DNA of 12,915 nt. Source: Candidatus Hodarchaeota archaeon. GTDB taxonomy: Archaea; Asgardarchaeota; Heimdallarchaeia; Hodarchaeales; Hodarchaeaceae. Position 1 is the stretch's first letter; the number at the start of each line of letters is the position of its first letter. The DNA is taken from contig JAEOTM010000082.1 in NCBI GenBank assembly GCA_016839815.1, positions 1 through 12,915 of the forward strand, written 5' to 3'. The notes below the pieces were generated by a model. That model saw only the letters and a list, made by a program, of their open reading frames with translations. It did no database searches and was not told the origin of the DNA. Below are positions 1,267 to 11,183 of this stretch, piece after piece. Both the position numbers and the translations under genes were made by a program.

Positions 1267-2364
1267 TTATTCTCTAAGGGGATTCAATCTTCGTAATTTT
1301 GAGAGATTATGGATGCGGAATGTTTCCCACGGTGTATTCATCAGGATTTTCCAATTACTATAGCAAGAGCAGATTTTAGAGAAATTTTCAGGTAATTTTT
1401 CTTTCTGAACAGCTTTCTCGATAAGTTTAAGTACCAACTTATCACATTTTCCACAGTTATGAGCTCCTCGTTCTTTACCTCCTGCAGTGGGATCACAGAT
1501 TATAGTAGAATTTGGGAAAAGCTCGTTACTCATCTTTATCACTTGAAGAACGGTCCATAACCAAGGAGACTGGTACTCATTTTTTCTAAAGAGCTCATAG
1601 ATCAATGTCCCATTTTGTACATTGCATGGGTTTATTGAAATAACATCAGATCCCAAGTGTTGTGCATCGATTATTGTCTTGATTGCATCTCTTAATGCTT
1701 CTTGTTCATTAAGGAAAGGTGGTTTAATAAAAACGTAACTCTTTACAGTAATTCCTATTGAATGTAGATATTCTAAACTAGATTTAAAATTTTCTAAAGT
1801 TGTACCCTTATTCCAACAGTCTTGTAAGATTGCATTATTAGAGCTTTCCAATCCTAAACCAATCTCTAGAGATACATTTGAAAGTTGTTTGAGTAATTTT
1901 TCAATTACCTTTTTCTCCTTCAGGATGTATTCAGGTCTACATTCGACCGATAATTTGATAACTTTACCAGATTGTGTAATCAGGTCTATTAACAAGTCTC
2001 TTAATTCTTCTGGAACATCATCTTTATCGAAAAAACTCCCAGAGTTAAATATCTGCAATTCTAATGGTTTTGTATATTCTACATCAATAATTACCCTTGT
2101 TAATTCCTCTTTAATTAGTTTAATTGGGATTTTGTTCTCCCTTGAGGAATCATTCACATATCCACAGACAGAACATCCTCCACTTTCTGACAATGCCCAA
2201 CTACATCCTCTGGAAGGAATTAAAACTGTAATTATAAGTAAATTCTCTTTTTCGGATACGCTACTCCAGATTTTTGCATGTGATTTATCCGATATATGCG
2301 TTAAATAGTCTTGCCGAATTCCTTTAATTTTCCTAGTAAGGAGTGGATTTGTCTTATTAAGCAT
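1267..2364 (-). CDS. raSEA: Radical SAM enzyme for archaeosine formation (RaSEA, TIGR01210-type)
   Basis: Atypical radical SAM motif GCSWALSESGGCSVCG, plus IFNSGSFFD, VECRPEYI, IGLGLES, KPPFL, PWLWT and C-terminal RGAHNCGKCD. Overlaps the arcS stop by 8 nt. Confidence 0.9.
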   Translation of the reverse strand: MLNKTNPLLTRKIKGIRQDYLTHISDKSHAKIWSSVSEKENLLIITVLIPSRGCSWALSESGGCSVCGYVNDSSRENKIPIKLIKEELTRVIIDVEYTKPLELQIFNSGSFFDKDDVPEELRDLLIDLITQSGKVIKLSVECRPEYILKEKKVIEKLLKQLSNVSLEIGLGLESSNNAILQDCWNKGTTLENFKSSLEYLHSIGITVKSYVFIKPPFLNEQEALRDAIKTIIDAQHLGSDVISINPCNVQNGTLIYELFRKNEYQSPWLWTVLQVIKMSNELFPNSTIICDPTAGGKERGAHNCGKCDKLVLKLIEKAVQKEKLPENFSKICSCYSNWKILMNTPWETFRIHNLSKLRRLNPLRE

Positions 2365-4237
2365 TATTTTTCACCTTTTGACGAATCTTAACACCTAAAC
2401 CCCGAGGCATGTCCATCAATAATTTTCCGGGAAGATAAGCTACTCCAGTTGCAATAATCTCATTATCCCCATTAACTACGATTACTTCATCATTTATTCT
2501 AATCTCTTGATCAGCTTCTTTTATAGCATTAGCAAATATCGTAGTACCATTAATGATTTCGCCATCAAATCTAACTACATTGTTTGTTAGACCAAATATC
2601 CGCTTTGCTGCTTCAATAGATAGCGTTAATAATCCAGTTGTGGAGCGAAATGTCATTAAATGCTTTCCAGAAATTTGAATTCGAATACCTAGCTCTTTAT
2701 GTCCTTGCAACTTTGATTTTTCAGGAATAAGCACTTTTCCTATATCCCGTCCAAATTGGAAATCAGCTACAGTTCTTAAGAATTCTAACAGCTTGTTTCC
2801 TTTGGAAATTGGTTCAATATCTAAATTTTCTGAAATGAGATGACGAAACTTATATAAACTCTCTTTAGAGATAAGAGATGATTCTACCTCATCGATTAGA
2901 AATATTTCCCTGTTTAATTTTCTACATACATTAGCTAATACCTCTCCTTCTGTTCCCCTAACATATCCTATGAGTTGAATAGCTTCTGGAATTTTATTTA
3001 GAAACGCTTCGAGATCATGATGAAGTAGTTTTTTTTCCACTCCACTCCATTCACCAGTGACTGGAATGTCATAATGTGCAGCGGGGTATGTATATTCTAA
3101 TTCCCTTGGAACAACTCCCAAAGGACTAGTGAGTATTATTTCTGCAATCGAATGACGTTTACTCTTCAATGTTCTCCGAATGACTCTTTGGAAAGCCTGA
3201 TGTGATTTTGATTGAGAATATGGTTTTTTAGCCGAACAAGGAAGGAAAATAATCCCTTGGATATGTGATCCCAGCTGAAATCTATCTTTCACTCGTTTTC
3301 TAAACCGTGCAACTTCAGGTCGAGAAAAATCAGTCTGGTCTGTACAATAAAGCGATCCAGTACTGTAAATTGAACACCCTACATCAAGGGGAATTTGCTT
3401 ATCTATCAACCTGAGCAGTGTCTTCTGAGGAGGGTATGAATTGGAATAAATTCTAACCAAATCTCGGAGTTTTCCATTTTTTAGAGCAACTCTTGTACGT
3501 TTTAGGGCTAGAATAAATTCTTCCACTGAGTTTTCAATTTCTAATACAATATCTGAATTATTAGAAATAGAGCGATATGTAAAGTCAAATAAATCTACAC
3601 CTAAGTAAGCTAAGATTGGAAAGAATGAAGAAGGCACTCCAGGTGCATAGAGTAAAACATCAGGGGTAATTTTTTTACGTACAGAAGACAGATATGAAAG
3701 TAGAAATTTTGGGTGATTGAGGAAAGATGTAATATCTCCCAAACAAATGCCTTCTATGTTCAGCAAGGGGAGATTTTTCAAGGTGTTTACCTGAATGGAC
3801 TTGAAAGGAACGTTTATCATAAATTTGGAATTATTAATAATATTAGTTTTCGATACTAATTCGTTAACTCTTTTATAATAGTTTTTTCCATTATCAATAT
3901 AGATTTCAGGTAAATCCCAAGGAACTAAATTGAAGGAATTGTTTCTAGAAGTCAAGAATTCCTCGGATTTTGGAAAAAACTCTTCAATTTTAGTAAGCTG
4001 AGATAGTGATTTACCTTGCATCTGTAAAGATGGGTATATGTTACAGTTAGGATAAGAGACTGAGTCATGAAATTGAGGTTGAGAGGAAACGTGACTCATA
4101 ATGGTTTTTTTGATAGGATCTTTTATTACTTCATTTCTCTTATAGATATTTAGAAACGTAGGTGTTTCATAAGTTTTTCCCAGATTGAGGATACCAAGCC
4201 GCCCCAGTCCCTCTAACTTTTTGATTTCAAATGACAT
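2357..4237 (-). CDS. arcS: Archaeosine synthase subunit ArcS (TgtA2) with C-terminal PUA domain
   Basis: TGT-like N-terminus (GLGRLG...ETP, YLGVDLFD), ArcS motifs LPCSAKKPYSQSKSH and TSPLGVVPRELEYTYPAAHYDIPVTGEW, ADFQFG, and a PUA domain (IRINDEVIVV...IIATGVA). A GGTG SD lies upstream. Confidence 0.93.
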   Translation of the reverse strand: MSFEIKKLEGLGRLGILNLGKTYETPTFLNIYKRNEVIKDPIKKTIMSHVSSQPQFHDSVSYPNCNIYPSLQMQGKSLSQLTKIEEFFPKSEEFLTSRNNSFNLVPWDLPEIYIDNGKNYYKRVNELVSKTNIINNSKFMINVPFKSIQVNTLKNLPLLNIEGICLGDITSFLNHPKFLLSYLSSVRKKITPDVLLYAPGVPSSFFPILAYLGVDLFDFTYRSISNNSDIVLEIENSVEEFILALKRTRVALKNGKLRDLVRIYSNSYPPQKTLLRLIDKQIPLDVGCSIYSTGSLYCTDQTDFSRPEVARFRKRVKDRFQLGSHIQGIIFLPCSAKKPYSQSKSHQAFQRVIRRTLKSKRHSIAEIILTSPLGVVPRELEYTYPAAHYDIPVTGEWSGVEKKLLHHDLEAFLNKIPEAIQLIGYVRGTEGEVLANVCRKLNREIFLIDEVESSLISKESLYKFRHLISENLDIEPISKGNKLLEFLRTVADFQFGRDIGKVLIPEKSKLQGHKELGIRIQISGKHLMTFRSTTGLLTLSIEAAKRIFGLTNNVVRFDGEIINGTTIFANAIKEADQEIRINDEVIVVNGDNEIIATGVAYLPGKLLMDMPRGLGVKIRQKVKNNA

Positions 4238-4553: not shown

Positions 4554-5975
4554 GTGAAATTTCCCTTGAGCTCTTCCCTTAGTAATACACAGATGATGGA
4601 ATATTTCCGTCCCAGAGGAAAAATCGTTTGTTTAGGAGATAAGATGAAACCAGAACTTGAGCTCGTAAAAAAGATATTAGACACATATAACGACAAGCGA
4701 ATACCTGTTCTTCTTCTTAGCTCTTCCACAAATCTTAGTGAATATGCTGATCAAGTAGTAATCTTTGACTCAGATTCGACAATAGCTCAAGTGCATAATC
4801 TCCTAAATTCCTCTTTCCTCTTTTTTCTATTTAATTCATCTGAAGAAGGAATATTGAGAATCTTGGGAACTATTTTAGCATCTATTGAATACAGAGGTAC
4901 AATCCCAATTTTTATTGATACTGGAAATGGCTTTCCGACCGAGCAAAAGAGAAATTTAGGAGAATGTTATTTTCATTTTGATTTGTTTGAAGAGATTAAT
5001 CAAAAGAATTTTTCAATATTCTTAGAAAGCGCAATCTCCGTTTTATCACCCACCTCAGGGCTTGGTATATCTTTCTCAGATTTAATACAGATTTTCGGGA
5101 AATCAGAAAGTCTATTTTATGGAATTTCTGAATCGAATCAGTTAGAAGATGTCCTTGAGGACTTAGTAAATCAGATTGGGGAAAAGTTAGTACACACATT
5201 ACCTGAGGAATTAGAACGTTTAGAAGCTATTTTTATTTCAGTAATCTCAGGAAATTCAATCAGTTTGCAAACTATGAATAAAATTACCTCTAAATTTGCT
5301 TCAACATTTGGAAGAGAATTCAATATCCATTTTTCTAACTCTGTAGAACCTGAGCTTCAGGGTTTTAAAGCATTAACAATACTTACAGATCTTCATCCTA
5401 TTAATGAAATATTCCCAGTAGCAAAGCCATTTCTAATGTTAGACTTCGAGAGTGAATCTGAAGATACATCAAATGAATTATCCTTCTCGAGTCATAAAGA
5501 GAACCCCTCCAAAGATGATGAAGAAGAGATGAGATTTCATATTCTGGGTAAAATCTTTTCTGAATCTGAAGTGTATATTTTTGATGATGGTGGCCTTCCC
5601 TTATTTGCAAGTCACCGGCCAGCAGGGCAAGAAGTTTGTCTGTATACAGGTTTGTTTTCTGCAATCCAGTCTATGAGTTCCGATTTAATAGGGCACTCCC
5701 CAGATCATCTTACCGCAGGGGATAAGGAATGTGTATTCGTTACACAGAAAGGCCCGAATCAAGTGCAGCTAAGGGGAGTAGCCATTTGTAATGGTGGACA
5801 TGAAGAAACAGCCAAGAATGACCTTAAAGTTTCAATGGATTTAGTCCATAGAATAATGCTTCAGGGAGAACCTGAATACGCTATAAATGATAAAATCCAA
5901 GCAATTCTTGTCAAAAGTTTTCAGAAAGGAGAACTCACAAATGGGTTATCCTTAGCCAAATATCAGGCGAGCTGA
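4554..5975 (+). CDS. Degenerate FtsZ/tubulin-fold protein fused to a C-terminal longin-like domain (start GTG 4554, or ATG 4593/4596)
   Basis: aa ~20-280 align by eye with FtsZ: DLFEEIN...GLGISFSDLIQIF vs FtsZ DAFGAAN...GLMNVDFADVRTVM, and AIFISVISGNSISL...IHFSNSVEPELQGFKALTILTDL vs GVLVNITAGFDLRL...VVIGTSLDPDMNDELRVTVVATGI. There is no GGGTGTG. An acidic linker spans aa ~297-325. aa ~337-460 carry the longin-type pattern VYIFDDGGLPLF...LYTGLFSAIQSMSSDL. Confidence 0.65.
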   Translation: MKFPLSSSLSNTQMMEYFRPRGKIVCLGDKMKPELELVKKILDTYNDKRIPVLLLSSSTNLSEYADQVVIFDSDSTIAQVHNLLNSSFLFFLFNSSEEGILRILGTILASIEYRGTIPIFIDTGNGFPTEQKRNLGECYFHFDLFEEINQKNFSIFLESAISVLSPTSGLGISFSDLIQIFGKSESLFYGISESNQLEDVLEDLVNQIGEKLVHTLPEELERLEAIFISVISGNSISLQTMNKITSKFASTFGREFNIHFSNSVEPELQGFKALTILTDLHPINEIFPVAKPFLMLDFESESEDTSNELSFSSHKENPSKDDEEEMRFHILGKIFSESEVYIFDDGGLPLFASHRPAGQEVCLYTGLFSAIQSMSSDLIGHSPDHLTAGDKECVFVTQKGPNQVQLRGVAICNGGHEETAKNDLKVSMDLVHRIMLQGEPEYAINDKIQAILVKSFQKGELTNGLSLAKYQAS

Positions 5976-5985
5976 AATCATCTAT

Positions 5986-6621
5986 TTATTTGGAAATCGA
6001 GTTTATCGCATTATTAGTATGAAAACGTTCATAGATTTTCTCTACGTATCCAAACTCTTCAATCAGTTCATGAATTCGTGTTGATTCAATATAGACTTCA
6101 GATGACCATAGGATCAAATATGCAGTAATGACGTGTATTTGAGGTGTAATGGATTCTTGTATTTCGAACACGATTTGTTTTCGGAGAGCTAGTTCGGTTT
6201 CATACATATCAATTATTTCTCGAATGGTATTTTGTGCCTGGTCGATAATTTCTAAATCATGGGGCCATTCAACTTTTTCTTTTACAGTACGATTTTTCGC
6301 TGGTTGAAGGATATCGCAATTGAAACTTGTCTCTATTTTTCTCATTTCTCGAATAACATCTTCAAAATGAGCAAGAAATTTATTTAATTCGAGAATATGT
6401 CTATTGATCGATTCAGCAAGGCGGAAAGCTAATCTTCCTTGTACATCATCGAATCGCGTTTTAACAGCTTCTGAGAAAACATCAGATCTCTGAGTCATGT
6501 TATATCTTGATAGAATATTCAATACCATATTTACTGTTCGTAATGACTGGCCCTGTACAGTAGTCCATTTTTTTTGAGAGATTTGAAGCCTCTTCTTAAA
6601 GACTCGTATACTCTGACTCAT
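5986..6621 (-). CDS. CINP/C1orf109(AIRIM)-like alpha-helical protein
   Basis: 211 aa, predicted all-helical. Motifs KWTTVQGQSLRTVNMVLNI, WP, DMYETELALRKQIVFEI and AYLILWSSEVYIES match, in order, the human CINP motifs as recalled (KWETLNDAGFTTANNIANL, WP, EMYRKELLLKRTVAKEL, SYLSMWLHQPYVES). Confidence 0.7.
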   Translation of the reverse strand: MSQSIRVFKKRLQISQKKWTTVQGQSLRTVNMVLNILSRYNMTQRSDVFSEAVKTRFDDVQGRLAFRLAESINRHILELNKFLAHFEDVIREMRKIETSFNCDILQPAKNRTVKEKVEWPHDLEIIDQAQNTIREIIDMYETELALRKQIVFEIQESITPQIHVITAYLILWSSEVYIESTRIHELIEEFGYVEKIYERFHTNNAINSISK

Positions 6622-6846: not shown

Positions 6847-9000
6847 TTGTCTTTATGTGTGAGTTGGTTGGTGAAAACGTACCCAGTATTATTCATAACT
6901 TTATTACTGGTTTTTTCTTACAGTAATGCGGATTCAGTCCATAACCATCATAATGTGACTGCTTTTTCTCTAACGTCACACGCCAGTAGCACTGATTTTA
7001 CTAATTCTACAGTTATCCAGTCAGGAATTCCTCAAGAAGGGGTTTTTACAAGTGAGAATAAAACTCACTACTGGAAGTTAGAAGATGTTAATCAAGGCCA
7101 AGTTGTATATCTTTCTCTTACCCCATACAGTGAAATGGAAATAGATCTTTATCGACCATCAGGAGAAAGTTTCTCCCAAATCTTAGAACCTACTGGAAGC
7201 TTAACCGATTATCTTGCTTCTTGGTCGGCAAATGATGATGGGGATTGGATAATTGCTATAAACGATACACGTGTGGCTCCTGATCTAAATGTTACTTACT
7301 CTGTTTTAGTATTTATGCCAAACTCAGCCTTTAGTTTAGATTCAGCCATACTAGTCAATGAGCTTCCAGTTAGAGCAAACTTTACAGTTAGTCATGAAAG
7401 CCATTATTGGAAGGTGTTGCTAAAAGAAAATCAGGTCGGAATATTAAATTTGCGGGAAATCACACCAATTGTACTACGGGAGTCTATAATTACAATATAC
7501 AGAAAGCTCAATCCCCAAAATCCAATTCTTCTCCCATTTGATATATTACAGAGCAATTATAGCTATTCATGGAATGCACCCGCGACAGATACATATTTTG
7601 TGGTCATTACACATAAATCAGAATTCCCTATAGGTCAATATAATATTTCATTTACAGTTGAGTCTGCTGGGTATAGTTTTGAAACCGCACAGGAGATACC
7701 TTTTAATCAGACATTTGCCATCAAAGTTGAACAGGGATTTATTCCTCGTAAACGCTATTATTTCAAATTTAGAATTAATGCAAGCCGTACTATCGCGAAT
7801 ATCCGTGTATTTGAGGTGAATACTACAACATCTACAATATTAGACTATGCGATCGTCGAAATCTTCGATGAGGGTCGTCAAGAACCAATTTTCTTACCCT
7901 GGCATGAGGAACAACAGAAAAGAGATGGTCAGATAAATATCTCTGAAAGGCTTGATGCTGGTATTTATTATCTACGAGTTACACCAGAGTCCAATGCAGT
8001 TGGTACGTTTCAAATATTCTTAGAATATCGTTTACCACAACCGTTCGTATGGAGTATCGTCGCAATTCTTCTAAATATATGTACAATCGTCGTACTTCCC
8101 GTTTATTTAATTTATCTGGATTCTAGAGGAAAGTGGTATAGAGTAAATCAATGGACGGTTGCTACTTCTCTCCAAAATACCTTTAAAATTTTCAGAAATA
8201 GTTTCAGAGGAATATATAATATTAAGGAAGTACCTAGTGACTCTATATTGATTCATATTGCCAGTATTCCTTTTCGGACGTATTCTATCCTAAATTTTGT
8301 GGAATCTTCAGAGAATGAAACACTGGTTTTCTCAAAGCGAATTAATCGTAAATATGAATGGGGAATATACATCCTTGTAGGTTTATTTGTATTTGATGCT
8401 ATGAATATTATATCCTATATTTTGTTTTCTATCCAATTTCTTCCAATTTATTTCACGAATTTAACGTCCCTTATATTATTCTTAGCAATTCCAACCATTG
8501 CATTACTACTCATTGTGTTATTCATTAATGGATCATCATATATGACTTATAGTCAGGTACACAACCGAATATCGTACATATTACAGAATATTGAAGATTC
8601 GGAAGAGAATACGATGTCTTCATTAAGTATGGATCCAATTCAAGCCGCGAAGAGTATAAACTATGTGAGAGTCTTATGGAATCAAGCGAGACACGCTTTT
8701 AAGAGCCAAAATTACGAACTGTTCGTGATCAAAGCCGATGCAGCAGTGAAAAATTTACTCTCCACAAGATTCTTGCAAATCTGTCCTATAAATACCCAAA
8801 CAAAAGCAGATTTTCAAACTCAAGTAGTAGAATTAAGGAAACGAGGATTTGACCTGCCTAATGAGAAAAAAATTGCCCATTTTAGAAATCTTCGGAATAG
8901 GATAGTTCATTCATCAGTTACATTAGGTGAGAAAGAATCTGTTGATTGTTTCGCCTATTATTCCACGTTTATCACTCGATTAGGACTTCGTCCCACGTAA
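6847..9000 (+). CDS. Membrane protein: signal peptide, 3 PPC-like beta-sandwich repeats, 3 TM helices, C-terminal HEPN-like domain (start TTG 6847, or GTG 6871)
   Basis: Hydrophobic N-terminus ending SNA|DS. Three ~110-aa repeats (HYWK/HYWK/YYFK ... GDWII/DTYFV/GIYYL). TM segments at aa ~400-424, ~505-532 and ~540-560. The C-terminus has WNQARHAFKSQNYELFVIKADAAVKNLL and RNLRNRIVH (R-x4-H at nt 8893-8910). Confidence 0.75.
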   Translation: MSLCVSWLVKTYPVLFITLLLVFSYSNADSVHNHHNVTAFSLTSHASSTDFTNSTVIQSGIPQEGVFTSENKTHYWKLEDVNQGQVVYLSLTPYSEMEIDLYRPSGESFSQILEPTGSLTDYLASWSANDDGDWIIAINDTRVAPDLNVTYSVLVFMPNSAFSLDSAILVNELPVRANFTVSHESHYWKVLLKENQVGILNLREITPIVLRESIITIYRKLNPQNPILLPFDILQSNYSYSWNAPATDTYFVVITHKSEFPIGQYNISFTVESAGYSFETAQEIPFNQTFAIKVEQGFIPRKRYYFKFRINASRTIANIRVFEVNTTTSTILDYAIVEIFDEGRQEPIFLPWHEEQQKRDGQINISERLDAGIYYLRVTPESNAVGTFQIFLEYRLPQPFVWSIVAILLNICTIVVLPVYLIYLDSRGKWYRVNQWTVATSLQNTFKIFRNSFRGIYNIKEVPSDSILIHIASIPFRTYSILNFVESSENETLVFSKRINRKYEWGIYILVGLFVFDAMNIISYILFSIQFLPIYFTNLTSLILFLAIPTIALLLIVLFINGSSYMTYSQVHNRISYILQNIEDSEENTMSSLSMDPIQAAKSINYVRVLWNQARHAFKSQNYELFVIKADAAVKNLLSTRFLQICPINTQTKADFQTQVVELRKRGFDLPNEKKIAHFRNLRNRIVHSSVTLGEKESVDCFAYYSTFITRLGLRPT
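6991..8028 (+). repeat. Three tandem diverged protein-level repeats (PPC-like), approx. nt 6991-7317, 7324-7659, 7666-8028
   Basis: Each unit has an F/L-x-x-A/S-x-x-I/V start (FTNSTVI, LDSAILV, FETAQEI), an aromatic-aromatic-K strand, an I/L-Y/F strand, a W/Y-hydrophobic strand and a terminal Y/F strand. Confidence 0.7.
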
Positions 9001-9439: not shown

Positions 9440-10678
9440 TCATTTTCCACCAATTTTTATTGAGCTTTTCGCTAATCTATGATTTTCACCAATGTAACAA
9501 TCAGCTTTGATTACTCGACCGTCAAAATGAGTCTGTTCTAGATCAAATTTGAATGTGTTTTCGAAGGAAAAGGTTTCACCTTCTGCAAGGGAACTAATCA
9601 GTTTCTCTTCAGTTCCCTGAGAAATCGAGACTCCCTCAGGTAGTTCGATTTTAATTTTAATATTCTGTATTGAGATTTTCCCAATATTTTCCACAAAAAA
9701 TGTAACCATGTATTCTAAATCCTCTTCAATCATCTCAGATTCCATTCTCAGATTCATTGCAGGTTCTGCATCTTTTGCTTCAATCGTATACAAATTTGAG
9801 TTACTCGGATATTCTCCCTCTTCATTTGGTATACTGTAAGTTATCATCAATGGACCTACCTGCCAACTTCCAGGTAGATTGGGAATCAAGGCAAAGTTGA
9901 TTGTATAATTTTCTCCTGTACTAAGCTTTAAGGGTAACTCTGGTGTGGTAGCTGAAATTAATCTCCCTTGAGAACCAGTCTTCAAAAAAACTGTATTTAC
10001 AGAGATCGGTGCATGGGCTGTAAGGGCCGCTGATAATAAAAACTCGGATCCCTTCTCTATTATTTGGTTCTTCTCACCTATAAAAACCTCTGACTGGCAA
10101 AGAGAACATCTCTGCATAATTTCCTCTGCTTTTTTCTTAATTTCAACAAATTCTTCAGGAATAGCAATTGTGGGTAATGGTTCATGTTCAACAAATGTCT
10201 CAGAAGAATGAATCAATGTCCATGCTAGTTTTATCGCTTTACCATATGAATCCTCTAAACTTCGTTTATTTGAATCATAGATAGACGAGAGCTTTTCAAA
10301 ATTTTTTTCTGAGAGGTAAATTAAGAATTGTAAGTATTTTATTTTGTTAGAAGCGATTTTAGGCTTTTTACTTGAACGGATCATTTGGAGTGTACGATCA
10401 ATGCTTTGAAATATCTCTCTATTAGATTTACGCTCCGCAGTAACTCGTAGTATTTGCTGATAATACAATTCAGATGCATTTTCATACATTTTAGCTTTTT
10501 CTGCAGACAAAGCAGCGTTATCAAGAGCTAATAGTTTCATTTCTTTTGTATCGAATTGTTGATAAGCTTTTTGAAACATTTTATGTGCTGCTTTAAAATT
10601 ATTTTTCTCAAAGGCTGATCTTCCCTTTTCAAAATTCGTTTGGGGATCTACACCTAGGATTCGTCGAATGAAAGACAT
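9440..10678 (-). CDS. Cytoplasmic TPR/alpha-solenoid protein with two C-terminal Ig-like (BatD/CARDB/ASH-like) domains
   Basis: aa ~12-190 are helical with a TPR pattern (FEKGRSAFEKNNFKAAHKMFQKA; NAALSAEKAKMYENASELY). aa ~193-302 and ~306-410 have Ig-fold motifs (LSTGENYTINF...PGSWQVGPLMITY; VENIGK...NIKIKIELPEGV...LAEGETFSF). No signal peptide or TM. GGTG SD 5 nt upstream of the ATG. Confidence 0.7.
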   Translation of the reverse strand: MSFIRRILGVDPQTNFEKGRSAFEKNNFKAAHKMFQKAYQQFDTKEMKLLALDNAALSAEKAKMYENASELYYQQILRVTAERKSNREIFQSIDRTLQMIRSSKKPKIASNKIKYLQFLIYLSEKNFEKLSSIYDSNKRSLEDSYGKAIKLAWTLIHSSETFVEHEPLPTIAIPEEFVEIKKKAEEIMQRCSLCQSEVFIGEKNQIIEKGSEFLLSAALTAHAPISVNTVFLKTGSQGRLISATTPELPLKLSTGENYTINFALIPNLPGSWQVGPLMITYSIPNEEGEYPSNSNLYTIEAKDAEPAMNLRMESEMIEEDLEYMVTFFVENIGKISIQNIKIKIELPEGVSISQGTEEKLISSLAEGETFSFENTFKFDLEQTHFDGRVIKADCYIGENHRLAKSSIKIGGK

Positions 10679-10778: not shown

Positions 10779-11183
10779 CTATGAAGATCTAATAAATTCA
10801 ATTAATTCTCTTTCTCGCTCCTTAAGAAGCAGAATTAATTTTCCCTTCAACTTTTCTGCATTTTTTTCAGTCTTCCCCAAATCATAGACTCTGCGAGAGA
10901 GTTCAATATCACCTAATACGTAATTAATCCATAATGCGAGATCTGAACGGACGACTGGGCCATCTAATTGCTGGGGTTCGAAAATGTTTTGAGTAGTTTC
11001 TCTAAAAACATGAAATTGAGTAATAGTTGCTGGTATTTCTGATAATGTGGAAATTAATTCTGACAAATTGGAAATTGTAGCGATAGTTCTACCCTGATTT
11101 CCAATGAACCGAAACGCAAGTTCAGGACTGCATTTTTTGAACATATCCTTAGCAGAAGTATGAGAGATTTCTATTCCAGCCAC
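10779..11183 (-). CDS. DUF5752-like small protein
   Basis: Pattern AFRF...G...SNLSEL...IP...QFH...SDLALWINYVLGDIELSRRV is characteristic of DUF5752. GTG start. Confidence 0.7.
   Translation of the reverse strand: MAGIEISHTSAKDMFKKCSPELAFRFIGNQGRTIATISNLSELISTLSEIPATITQFHVFRETTQNIFEPQQLDGPVVRSDLALWINYVLGDIELSRRVYDLGKTEKNAEKLKGKLILLLKERERELIEFIRSS

Follow-up and report, generated by a model that had tools for sequence, protein, structure and literature searches.

The window analysed here, a stretch of 12,915 nucleotides of contig JAEOTM010000082.1 (assembly GCA_016839815.1) from a Candidatus Hodarchaeota archaeon, has a G+C content of 34% and carries on its forward strand, at 4554..5975, an open reading frame (ORF) for a protein in which the fold of FtsZ, without the motifs that bind guanosine triphosphate (GTP), is joined through an acidic linker to a domain of the longin/roadblock superfamily. 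The frame yields 473 residues when read from the GTG at 4554, or 460 residues from the ATG at 4593, the start used in public gene calls (protein P0002), and it ends with the stop codon at 5973-5975. Judging from the sequence either start is possible, and the GTG is a plausible one because the 13 residues that separate the two starts, which include SSSLSNTQMM, resemble the N-termini of the homologues P0012 and P0013; residue numbers throughout refer to the 460-residue form. The gene stands alone, as the upstream gene is divergent across a spacer of 316 base pairs (bp) and the downstream gene is convergent.

An AlphaFold2 model of the full protein, built on a family alignment of 38 sequences, had a mean predicted local distance difference test score (pLDDT) of 69.8, with the blocks of the N-terminal module scoring mostly between 70 and 90. 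Structural re-alignment with VIA-align superposed residues 5-262 of the model on residues 7-306 of FtsZ with Z-scores of 15.3-14.3 and root mean square deviations (rmsd) of 3.3-3.8 Å over 241-255 residues, the top 50 structural matches of the module being FtsZ without exception, including Odinarchaeota FtsZ1, and a Foldseek search of the PDB placed FtsZ in essentially every row, with expect values (E) from 4e-5 over approximately 320 columns. A generic Rossmann fold was considered for this module and ruled out, because the two subdomains, together with helix H7 that connects them, superpose on FtsZ simultaneously, with FtsZ alone heading the list. The first of these subdomains, residues 1-152 (4593..5048), was assigned by fold match, secondary structure and positional alignment to a shortened form of the FtsZ GTPase-domain fold (S1-S6, H1-H7), while the second, residues 153-265 (5049..5387), comprises the T7 loop, helix H8 and the equivalent of the FtsZ C-terminal domain, and is the sole part of the protein with sequence-level similarity to FtsZ. 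FtsZ chains alone were returned from all PDB sequences both by phmmer with the protein itself and by hmmsearch with the profile of the 38-sequence family; the best profile alignment (E 0.003) pairs profile positions 162-315 with residues 203-353 of B. subtilis FtsZ, which represent the T7 loop and C-terminal domain, and the Pfam model FtsZ_C was matched below threshold in 16 of the 38 family members (best E 4e-4). The protein has no Pfam or NCBIfam match, the cut-offs of PF00091, PF12327 and TIGR00065 not being reached, and a PF00091 search of the genome does not recover the gene.

The loops that form the nucleotide pocket in FtsZ were located from the secondary structure of the model, the family alignment and a MAFFT alignment with genuine FtsZ, the last of these being approximate at T3 and H6/T6, where it was guided by the flanking strands. 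T1, the loop following S1, reads GDKMKP in place of GGGGNN; T4, following S4, reads NSSEEG (residues 81-86, 4833..4850) where FtsZ has the tubulin signature GGGTGTG; and T5, following S5, reads TGNGFP in place of LPFxxEG. The T3 loop (GxGAGxxP) falls inside a gap of approximately 20 residues relative to genuine FtsZ, and approximately 23 residues of the H6/T6 region are deleted, these two deletions accounting for an N-terminal module that is about 40 residues shorter than the FtsZ core. At T7, the equivalent of the N-x-D-x-x-D motif is GISFSD (residues 158-163, 5064..5081): residue-level HMMER alignment pairs N-L-D-F-A-D of FtsZ with G-I-S-F-S-D, such that Gly stands in for Asn and Ser for the first Asp, with the last Asp retained, the family consensus being G-[VI]-S-F-S-D. 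From the replaced and deleted loops together with the decay of T7 there are good grounds to infer that the protein neither binds nor hydrolyses GTP in the manner of FtsZ. The residues that now occupy the pocket side are conserved among the 38 homologues, with G15, D53, Q54 and S82 invariant and N81, S83, D109 and G111 nearly so, and this conservation at the C-terminal ends of S1, S3, S4 and S5 is what would favour a non-canonical but active FtsZ paralogue, holding a nucleotide or phosphate ligand in a remodelled pocket and polymerising with itself. Such an activity appears very improbable for a protein that has no glycine-rich loop, in which T3 and H6/T6 are deleted and T7 has neither the Asn nor the first Asp, and which is matched by neither the Pfam Tubulin profile nor TIGR00065.

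The FtsZ-like body is followed by an acidic linker (residues 266-306, 5388..5510) which is predicted to be disordered (pLDDT below 50) and has a mean column identity of just 0.39, and this in turn by the C-terminal domain (residues 307-444, 5511..5924), the extent of which was defined by the model, structural matches and conservation. When the C-terminal 161 residues were modelled alone (pLDDT 76, predicted template modelling score 0.73) they adopted the topology α1-β1-β2-α2-β3-β4-β5-α3-α4, which contains the β-β-α-β-β-β-α core of the superfamily with its five-stranded antiparallel sheet between helices, and a search of this model against all structure representatives returned as best match the longin domain of Mon1 from the Mon1-Ccz1-Ypt7 complex (Z 9.4, rmsd 2.8 Å, 94 residues, 18-20% identity). 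The roadblock domain of LokiRagO, a Rag-like GTPase of Lokiarchaeota (Z 9.3), Lamtor (8.9) and AP-3 sigma (8.7) came next, with Gse1 (8.6), BLOC-3 (8.5) and TRAPP subunits (8.4-8.0) further down, and the top 16 rows were longin or roadblock throughout. Foldseek also returned a list of longin and roadblock domains throughout, but with E values of 3e-3 or weaker. In sequence searches one of the 38 family members matched Pfam PF19036, Fuz_longin_1 (FUZ/MON1/HPS1), with an E value of 0.0019; no Pfam longin or roadblock profile reached its gathering score for the window protein, and a family profile of its longin domain retrieved nothing relevant from all PDB sequences. Since the domain combines an N-terminal helix of the roadblock type with two C-terminal helices of the longin type, its model is more safely labelled as a member of the longin/roadblock superfamily that is closest to the longin of Mon1.

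These results bear out the observations of the original prediction, which had been made from the letters of the window, and a part of its interpretation. The strings that it quoted, KIVCLG, NSSEEG, GISFSD, VYIFDDGGLPLF and GLFSAIQSM, are all present in the translation, and the architecture it described, a full FtsZ fold followed by an acidic linker and a longin-type domain, is shown by the models and their structural matches, Foldseek having returned FtsZ rather than a generic Rossmann fold for the N-terminal module and longin/roadblock domains for the C-terminal part. The loss of the GGGTG signature and the decay of T7 were likewise found in the alignments, with NSSEEG at T4 and GISFSD at T7. 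Its term for the C-terminal domain was broadly right, as longin and roadblock structures top the list with Mon1 at Z 9.4, but the additional N-terminal helix calls for the wider superfamily name. The colinear similarity to FtsZ that it claimed from the first strand onwards extends as a fold over residues 5-262 and as sequence from T7, but is not matched by sequence or profile similarity in the first 152 residues.

Conservation is by far the highest in the C-terminal domain (mean column identity 72% as opposed to 60%), and within it residues 326-375, which span β1, β2, α2, the following loop and strand β3, are approximately 95% identical in 38 homologues that are otherwise 33-87% identical. The β1-α2-β3 region is presumably the GTPase-binding face, on the basis of the Mon1-Ccz1-Ypt7 and MglB-MglA structures, and by analogy residues 326-375 may constitute such a face in the window protein. 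The remaining C-terminal tail (5925..5972), delimited by the family alignment and the model, is variable and was modelled with low confidence, and ends in an Ala-Ser that is invariant in all 38 family members. The same ending, in the forms QAS, HAS, PAS, NAS and GAS, recurs in a family of intact FtsZ-longin proteins, described below, and in most of the degenerate paralogue families, P0075, P0090, P0081 and P0083 being examples, and may function as a short linear motif at the C-terminus.

A search of 5.8 billion proteins identified 68 relatives of 443-522 residues, either full length or truncated by contig ends, which where named were labelled mainly Hodarchaeales/Hodarchaeota or Heimdallarchaeota, all labels being Asgard lineages. 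The full-length gene was present as a single copy and free of internal stops in each of the 22 genomes of its genus, including single-contig genomes, and no full-length match was found in 378 other genomes of the phylum. In the sister family two genomes gave a match to the longin domain only, one of these matches being the 479-residue protein P0083; its locus lies in genome G400, which is apparently the same assembly as G079, the hits in both having one contig number and near-identical coordinates. The family profile aligned with P0083 over positions 158-434, and its gene occupies the equivalent position, following GrpE-DnaK-DnaJ and the radical-SAM/ArcS pair. P0083 is thus a fast-diverged positional orthologue, from which it follows that the gene is distributed order-wide. 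The possibility that an assembly or gene-calling error had fused two unrelated genes is refuted by the occurrence of the same architecture, without internal stops, in 22 of 22 genus genomes and in the 68 database proteins, as well as in four further paralogue families, and it can for practical purposes be dismissed; the fusion is real, as had been predicted.

Ratios of non-synonymous to synonymous substitution (omega) were calculated by the method of Nei and Gojobori for five close orthologues, for which most pairs were saturated (dS >1) and three were usable. Across these three pairs omega was approximately 0.05-0.13 overall. By region, the longin domain had values of 0.02-0.03, the FtsZ_C-like part had approximately 0.08, and the N-terminal subdomain had 0.05-0.07, with a value of 0.21 in the closest pair, where changes are very few. 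On account of these low values, the dead FtsZ body, as every other part of the protein, is seen to be maintained by strong purifying selection. The particularly low omega of the longin domain, its higher column identity and the fact that its nearest structural matches are longin domains of Rab guanine nucleotide exchange factors (Mon1, BLOC-3, TRAPP and CPLANE) would be in keeping with a protein that acts purely as a regulator of small GTPases, be it an exchange factor (GEF) or a GTPase-activating protein (GAP), and has no cytoskeletal role, its FtsZ-like body serving as a scaffold or dimerisation domain in the way of the second domain of longin-DENN proteins. We regard such a regulator as unlikely, given that purifying selection acts strongly on the body as well (omega 0.05-0.08), that the body has kept its whole two-domain fold, and that known longin GEFs and GAPs function as hetero- or homodimers of several longins, whereas only one longin of this type was found in the genome.

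The origin of the protein was illuminated by a search of 1.84 billion representative sequences with the family profile, which returned 17 proteins. One of these, P0075 (572 residues), aligned with an E value of 3e-17 over a stretch that starts at the T7 loop and takes in the whole longin domain, and is a genuine FtsZ, matching PF00091 at 4e-40 and FtsZ_C at 1.5e-19, with the motifs GVGGGGNN, GGGTGTG and NLDYSD intact. Its longin domain in turn retrieved five more intact proteins (P0089-P0093) from metagenome-assembled genomes of Hodarchaeales, which are annotated as 'cell division protein FtsZ' and of which P0090 reaches 338 bits on TIGR00065, for which the cut-off is 295. Comparison of the intact family with that of the window protein by hhalign gave a probability of 99% and an E value of 5e-18 over 280 colinear columns that encompass T7, FtsZ_C, the linker and the longin domain. 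The full-length fusion architecture is also found in four further paralogue families, and other degenerate combinations of an FtsZ-like and a longin domain are represented by P0078 (515 residues, FtsZ_C E 0.006), P0080 and P0081. The genome of the window encodes one canonical FtsZ (G000:C149, 428 residues) and two divergent tubulin-superfamily proteins; searches of this genome and of 83 genomes of the class revealed no intact FtsZ-longin gene, the assemblies that hold the intact genes lying outside the searched genome set.

The simplest reading of these sequences is that we are dealing with one ancestral FtsZ-longin fusion, which would have been followed by loss of the GTPase motifs in several lines. 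That the anatomy of the window protein is as described (FtsZ fold, lost loops, linker and longin domain), and that it originates from a genuine FtsZ-longin fusion, is in our estimation very probable. The protein fails every definition of FtsZ at the level of sequence, yet has the fold and, by way of the intact fusion family, the homology, and is best described as a pseudo-FtsZ. Two further observations concern the tubulin superfamily in these searches. A metagenomic protein of 270 residues, P0084, matches FtsZ_C (E 1e-16) and has an intact T7 motif, NVDYAD, and carries no tubulin signature and no longin domain. At another locus (L002, G000:C147), two adjoining genes on the same strand, at 62-1462 and 1477-2847, encode proteins of 466 and 456 residues, the second being a divergent tubulin-superfamily protein (PF00091 6e-17, Tubulin_2 3e-4) and the first having no Pfam match; they could form a paired tubulin-like system.

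A lead to a possible partner of the longin domain was obtained from the surroundings of the intact genes. All three contigs with enough flanking sequence show the gene order TFIIB / GTPase / FtsZ-longin / EamA, in which a Rab-like GTPase gene precedes the intact FtsZ-longin gene on the same strand, with a gap of 270-620 bp between the two. The GTPase, a Ras-superfamily protein of 184-190 residues with the motifs GDGAVGKT, WDLAGQ, NKVDL and ETSAK, has a best match in the window genome (G000:C20:15182-15739) with 65% identity over its full length, the next paralogues being at 55-57%, and this orthologue is 87-99% conserved within the genus. With the threshold for orthology set just above the paralogue level, the GTPase was detected in 20 of the 22 genus genomes (the two without it being 74% and 80% complete), in both sister-family genomes and in none of 59 other genomes of the class, which is the same order-level pattern as that of the dead FtsZ-longin gene. 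The link to small GTPases that had been suggested in the original prediction receives indirect support from the position of the intact relatives directly downstream of a Rab-like GTPase gene in three of three contigs. When two copies of the longin domain were co-folded with the Rab-like GTPase of the window genome, scores of 0.25 and 0.13 were obtained, below the mark of 0.32 for a verdict in either direction. The gene order TFIIB / GTPase / FtsZ-longin / EamA is absent around both the Rab-like GTPase and the canonical FtsZ of this genome. On contig C20 (L025, G000:C20), a 243-residue Roadblock/LC7 protein (E 1.8e-6) is encoded at 3471-4202 on the forward strand, approximately 2 kb from the Rab-like GTPase orthologue (L025:6180-6740, reverse strand).

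Ordinary FtsZ carries at the end of its disordered linker a short peptide for binding to membrane tethers, the tether in archaea being SepF (PMC12583498), and the canonical FtsZ of the window genome ends in such a short tail and has no extra domain. As the longin domain is placed on its acidic linker where ordinary FtsZ carries this tether-binding peptide, it would represent the working, partner-binding end of the protein. The likeliest partner would be a Rab-like small GTPase, for which the domain could serve as a docking or regulatory platform as longins and roadblocks do in Mon1-Ccz1, MglB and Ragulator, with another longin/roadblock protein as the alternative partner. The FtsZ body would then form the cytoskeletal end and, deprived of a GTP cycle, could be a static subunit, a cap or a scaffold that acts through protein contacts only, either with true filaments of the FtsZ/tubulin family or with itself, so that the protein would couple the state of a small GTPase to an FtsZ-type cytoskeleton or to a membrane site. 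We give an even chance to this explanation as a whole, by which the protein is a non-GTP-binding FtsZ paralogue specific to the order, descends from an FtsZ-longin fusion and acts as a GTPase-docking adaptor; the adaptor mechanism itself, which is drawn by analogy, is somewhat less secure than that.

Several observations weigh against this explanation. A profile-profile comparison of residues 1-152 with FtsZ GTPase domains revealed no similarity (probability 0.1%), and in view of this lack of sequence similarity the descent of the N-terminal subdomain from the FtsZ GTPase domain is suggested by the modelled fold and by colinearity alone. The conservation of the residues that replace the pocket motifs indicates that constraint persists on the side where the pocket used to be, which may now serve as an interface or accommodate some other ligand. 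The GTPase orthologue of the window genome lies on a contig other than that of the target gene (C20) and does not adjoin it, and as this genome encodes more than 30 small GTPases the partner is assigned by orthology only. The phyletic pattern shared by the two genes also amounts to one phylogenetic event, which is weak evidence for a functional connection.

The body of the protein could also act on filaments in a more direct manner, as a cap or poison subunit, along the lines of the original prediction. With its conserved T7/H8 face it would dock on an FtsZ- or tubulin-like protofilament at the end that bears GTP and, lacking the catalytic Asp and a pocket of its own, would block or stabilise that end, the longin domain determining where this takes place. 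H8 and its surroundings (F161, F168 and G169) rank among the most strongly conserved regions of the body, one T7 Asp is retained, and the canonical FtsZ and the two tubulin-superfamily genes of the window genome provide possible targets; a precedent exists in plant ARC3, an FtsZ-like domain joined to an interaction domain, which is reported to inhibit Z-ring assembly directly (PMC12232670; 10.1101/2024.01.08.574726). Set against this are an N-terminal subdomain that is too diverged for sequence similarity and top-face loops, which make up one half of every longitudinal FtsZ contact, that are replaced or deleted, and a capping role seems to us as doubtful as that of a pure GTPase regulator.

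The fusion brings together two systems that are central to eukaryotic cells, as longin/roadblock domains and small GTPases are at the core of the control of membrane identity and trafficking, and FtsZ and tubulin are at the core of division and of the microtubule cytoskeleton; Hodarchaeales are often placed closest to eukaryotes. The fusion occurs in intact and dead forms, is conserved across an Asgard order and in its intact form stands beside a Rab-like GTPase gene, and it therefore offers a system, amenable to cloning, in which to ask whether signalling by small GTPases was already connected to a tubulin-type cytoskeleton before eukaryotes, in addition to providing a clear case of an FtsZ-derived pseudo-enzyme. 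More speculatively, and with a probability that we would place below that of either the capping or the pure GTPase-regulator alternative, FtsZ-longin and the Rab-like GTPase could constitute an archaeal module, conserved in all Hodarchaeales, in which a small GTPase directly controls the anchoring or ending of tubulin-superfamily filaments and to which the dead copy contributes a non-hydrolysing end-binding or nucleating subunit; such a module would prefigure, in a prokaryote, the control that small GTPases exert over the interface of cytoskeleton and membrane.

The genes that surround the FtsZ-longin gene in the window are conserved even at homologous loci where the target protein is just 33% identical, and the sister family retains the upstream block only. 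Convergent with the target at 5986-6621 on the reverse strand is a gene for a 211-residue protein that matches the Pfam family CA109-like (ribosome biogenesis protein C1orf109-like, E 3.9e-11), and this gene keeps its position at homologous loci over the same range of target identity. Upstream, at 1267-4237 on the reverse strand, a radical-SAM gene lies directly downstream of a gene with DUF5591, TGT_C2 and PUA domains, which we take to be the ArcS/RaSEA pair of archaeosine synthesis, and a DnaJ gene precedes them; in relatives GrpE-DnaK-DnaJ precedes the radical-SAM/ArcS block, and the sister family too has this block on the upstream side of the target gene. The window further contains genes for a 717-residue protein that has no Pfam match (6847-9000, forward strand), a 412-residue protein with a weak match to Nup120 HEAT repeats (E 1e-6; 9440-10678, reverse strand) and a DUF5752 protein (10779-11183, reverse strand), all three being syntenic in relatives. 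A function deduced from these neighbours as an operon was ruled out, as the genes are convergent or divergent and functionally unrelated (archaeosine enzymes of transfer RNA, DnaJ, C1orf109-like), and the conserved neighbourhood is read as frozen synteny and not as a functional cluster.

Among known systems, the closest are the intact FtsZ-longin proteins of approximately 575 residues (P0075 and P0089-P0093), in which an FtsZ core, a disordered linker and a homologous longin domain ending in ...AS follow in the same order. These keep GGGGNN, GGGTGTG and NLDxSD and exceed the TIGR00065 cut-off, whereas the window protein has none of these features, is approximately 110 residues shorter, and is encoded in a different conserved neighbourhood with no adjoining Rab-like GTPase gene. 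With canonical FtsZ (PF00091 and PF12327; TIGR00065; PDB entries 8h1o, 6ym1 and 1w58, and OdinFtsZ1, 9v7v) it shares the complete two-domain fold with H7, at a Z-score of approximately 15, and, in the stretch comprising T7 and the C-terminal domain, a sequence similarity that is weak but specific; it differs in having no GTP-binding loops, a decayed T7 and a whole longin domain in place of the tether-binding peptide. The alpha/beta sandwich of its C-terminal domain is that of the first longin domain of Mon1, Fuzzy and HPS1 and of the wider superfamily (MglB, LAMTOR, AP sigma, and Bet5 and Trs23 of TRAPP); the additional, roadblock-like N-terminal helix sets it apart from Mon1-type longins, and in the tri-longin RabGEFs (Mon1-Ccz1, BLOC-3 and CPLANE) each subunit has three consecutive longins, as opposed to one longin and an FtsZ fold here. 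A survey of longin/roadblock architectures in Asgard archaea describes fusions to small GTPases and to TRAPPC3, and none to FtsZ (PMC10933270), and no description of an FtsZ/tubulin fold fused to a longin/roadblock domain was encountered in 8.4 million full texts. The statement of the original prediction that the fusion had not been described is thus in agreement with our literature searches, in which we found no published account of a covalent FtsZ-longin fusion, and its members are annotated as 'FtsZ' when intact and as 'hypothetical protein' when dead. Plant ARC3, which is composed of an FtsZ-like, a middle and a MORN domain, likewise joins an FtsZ-derived domain to an interaction domain, and it is reported to be a regulator of FtsZ assembly and not a filament former (PMC12232670; 10.1101/2024.01.08.574726). 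It is however of independent origin, within the chloroplast lineage, its partner domain is MORN and not longin, and it has no link to small GTPases, so that its resemblance to the FtsZ-longin protein is a functional analogy only.

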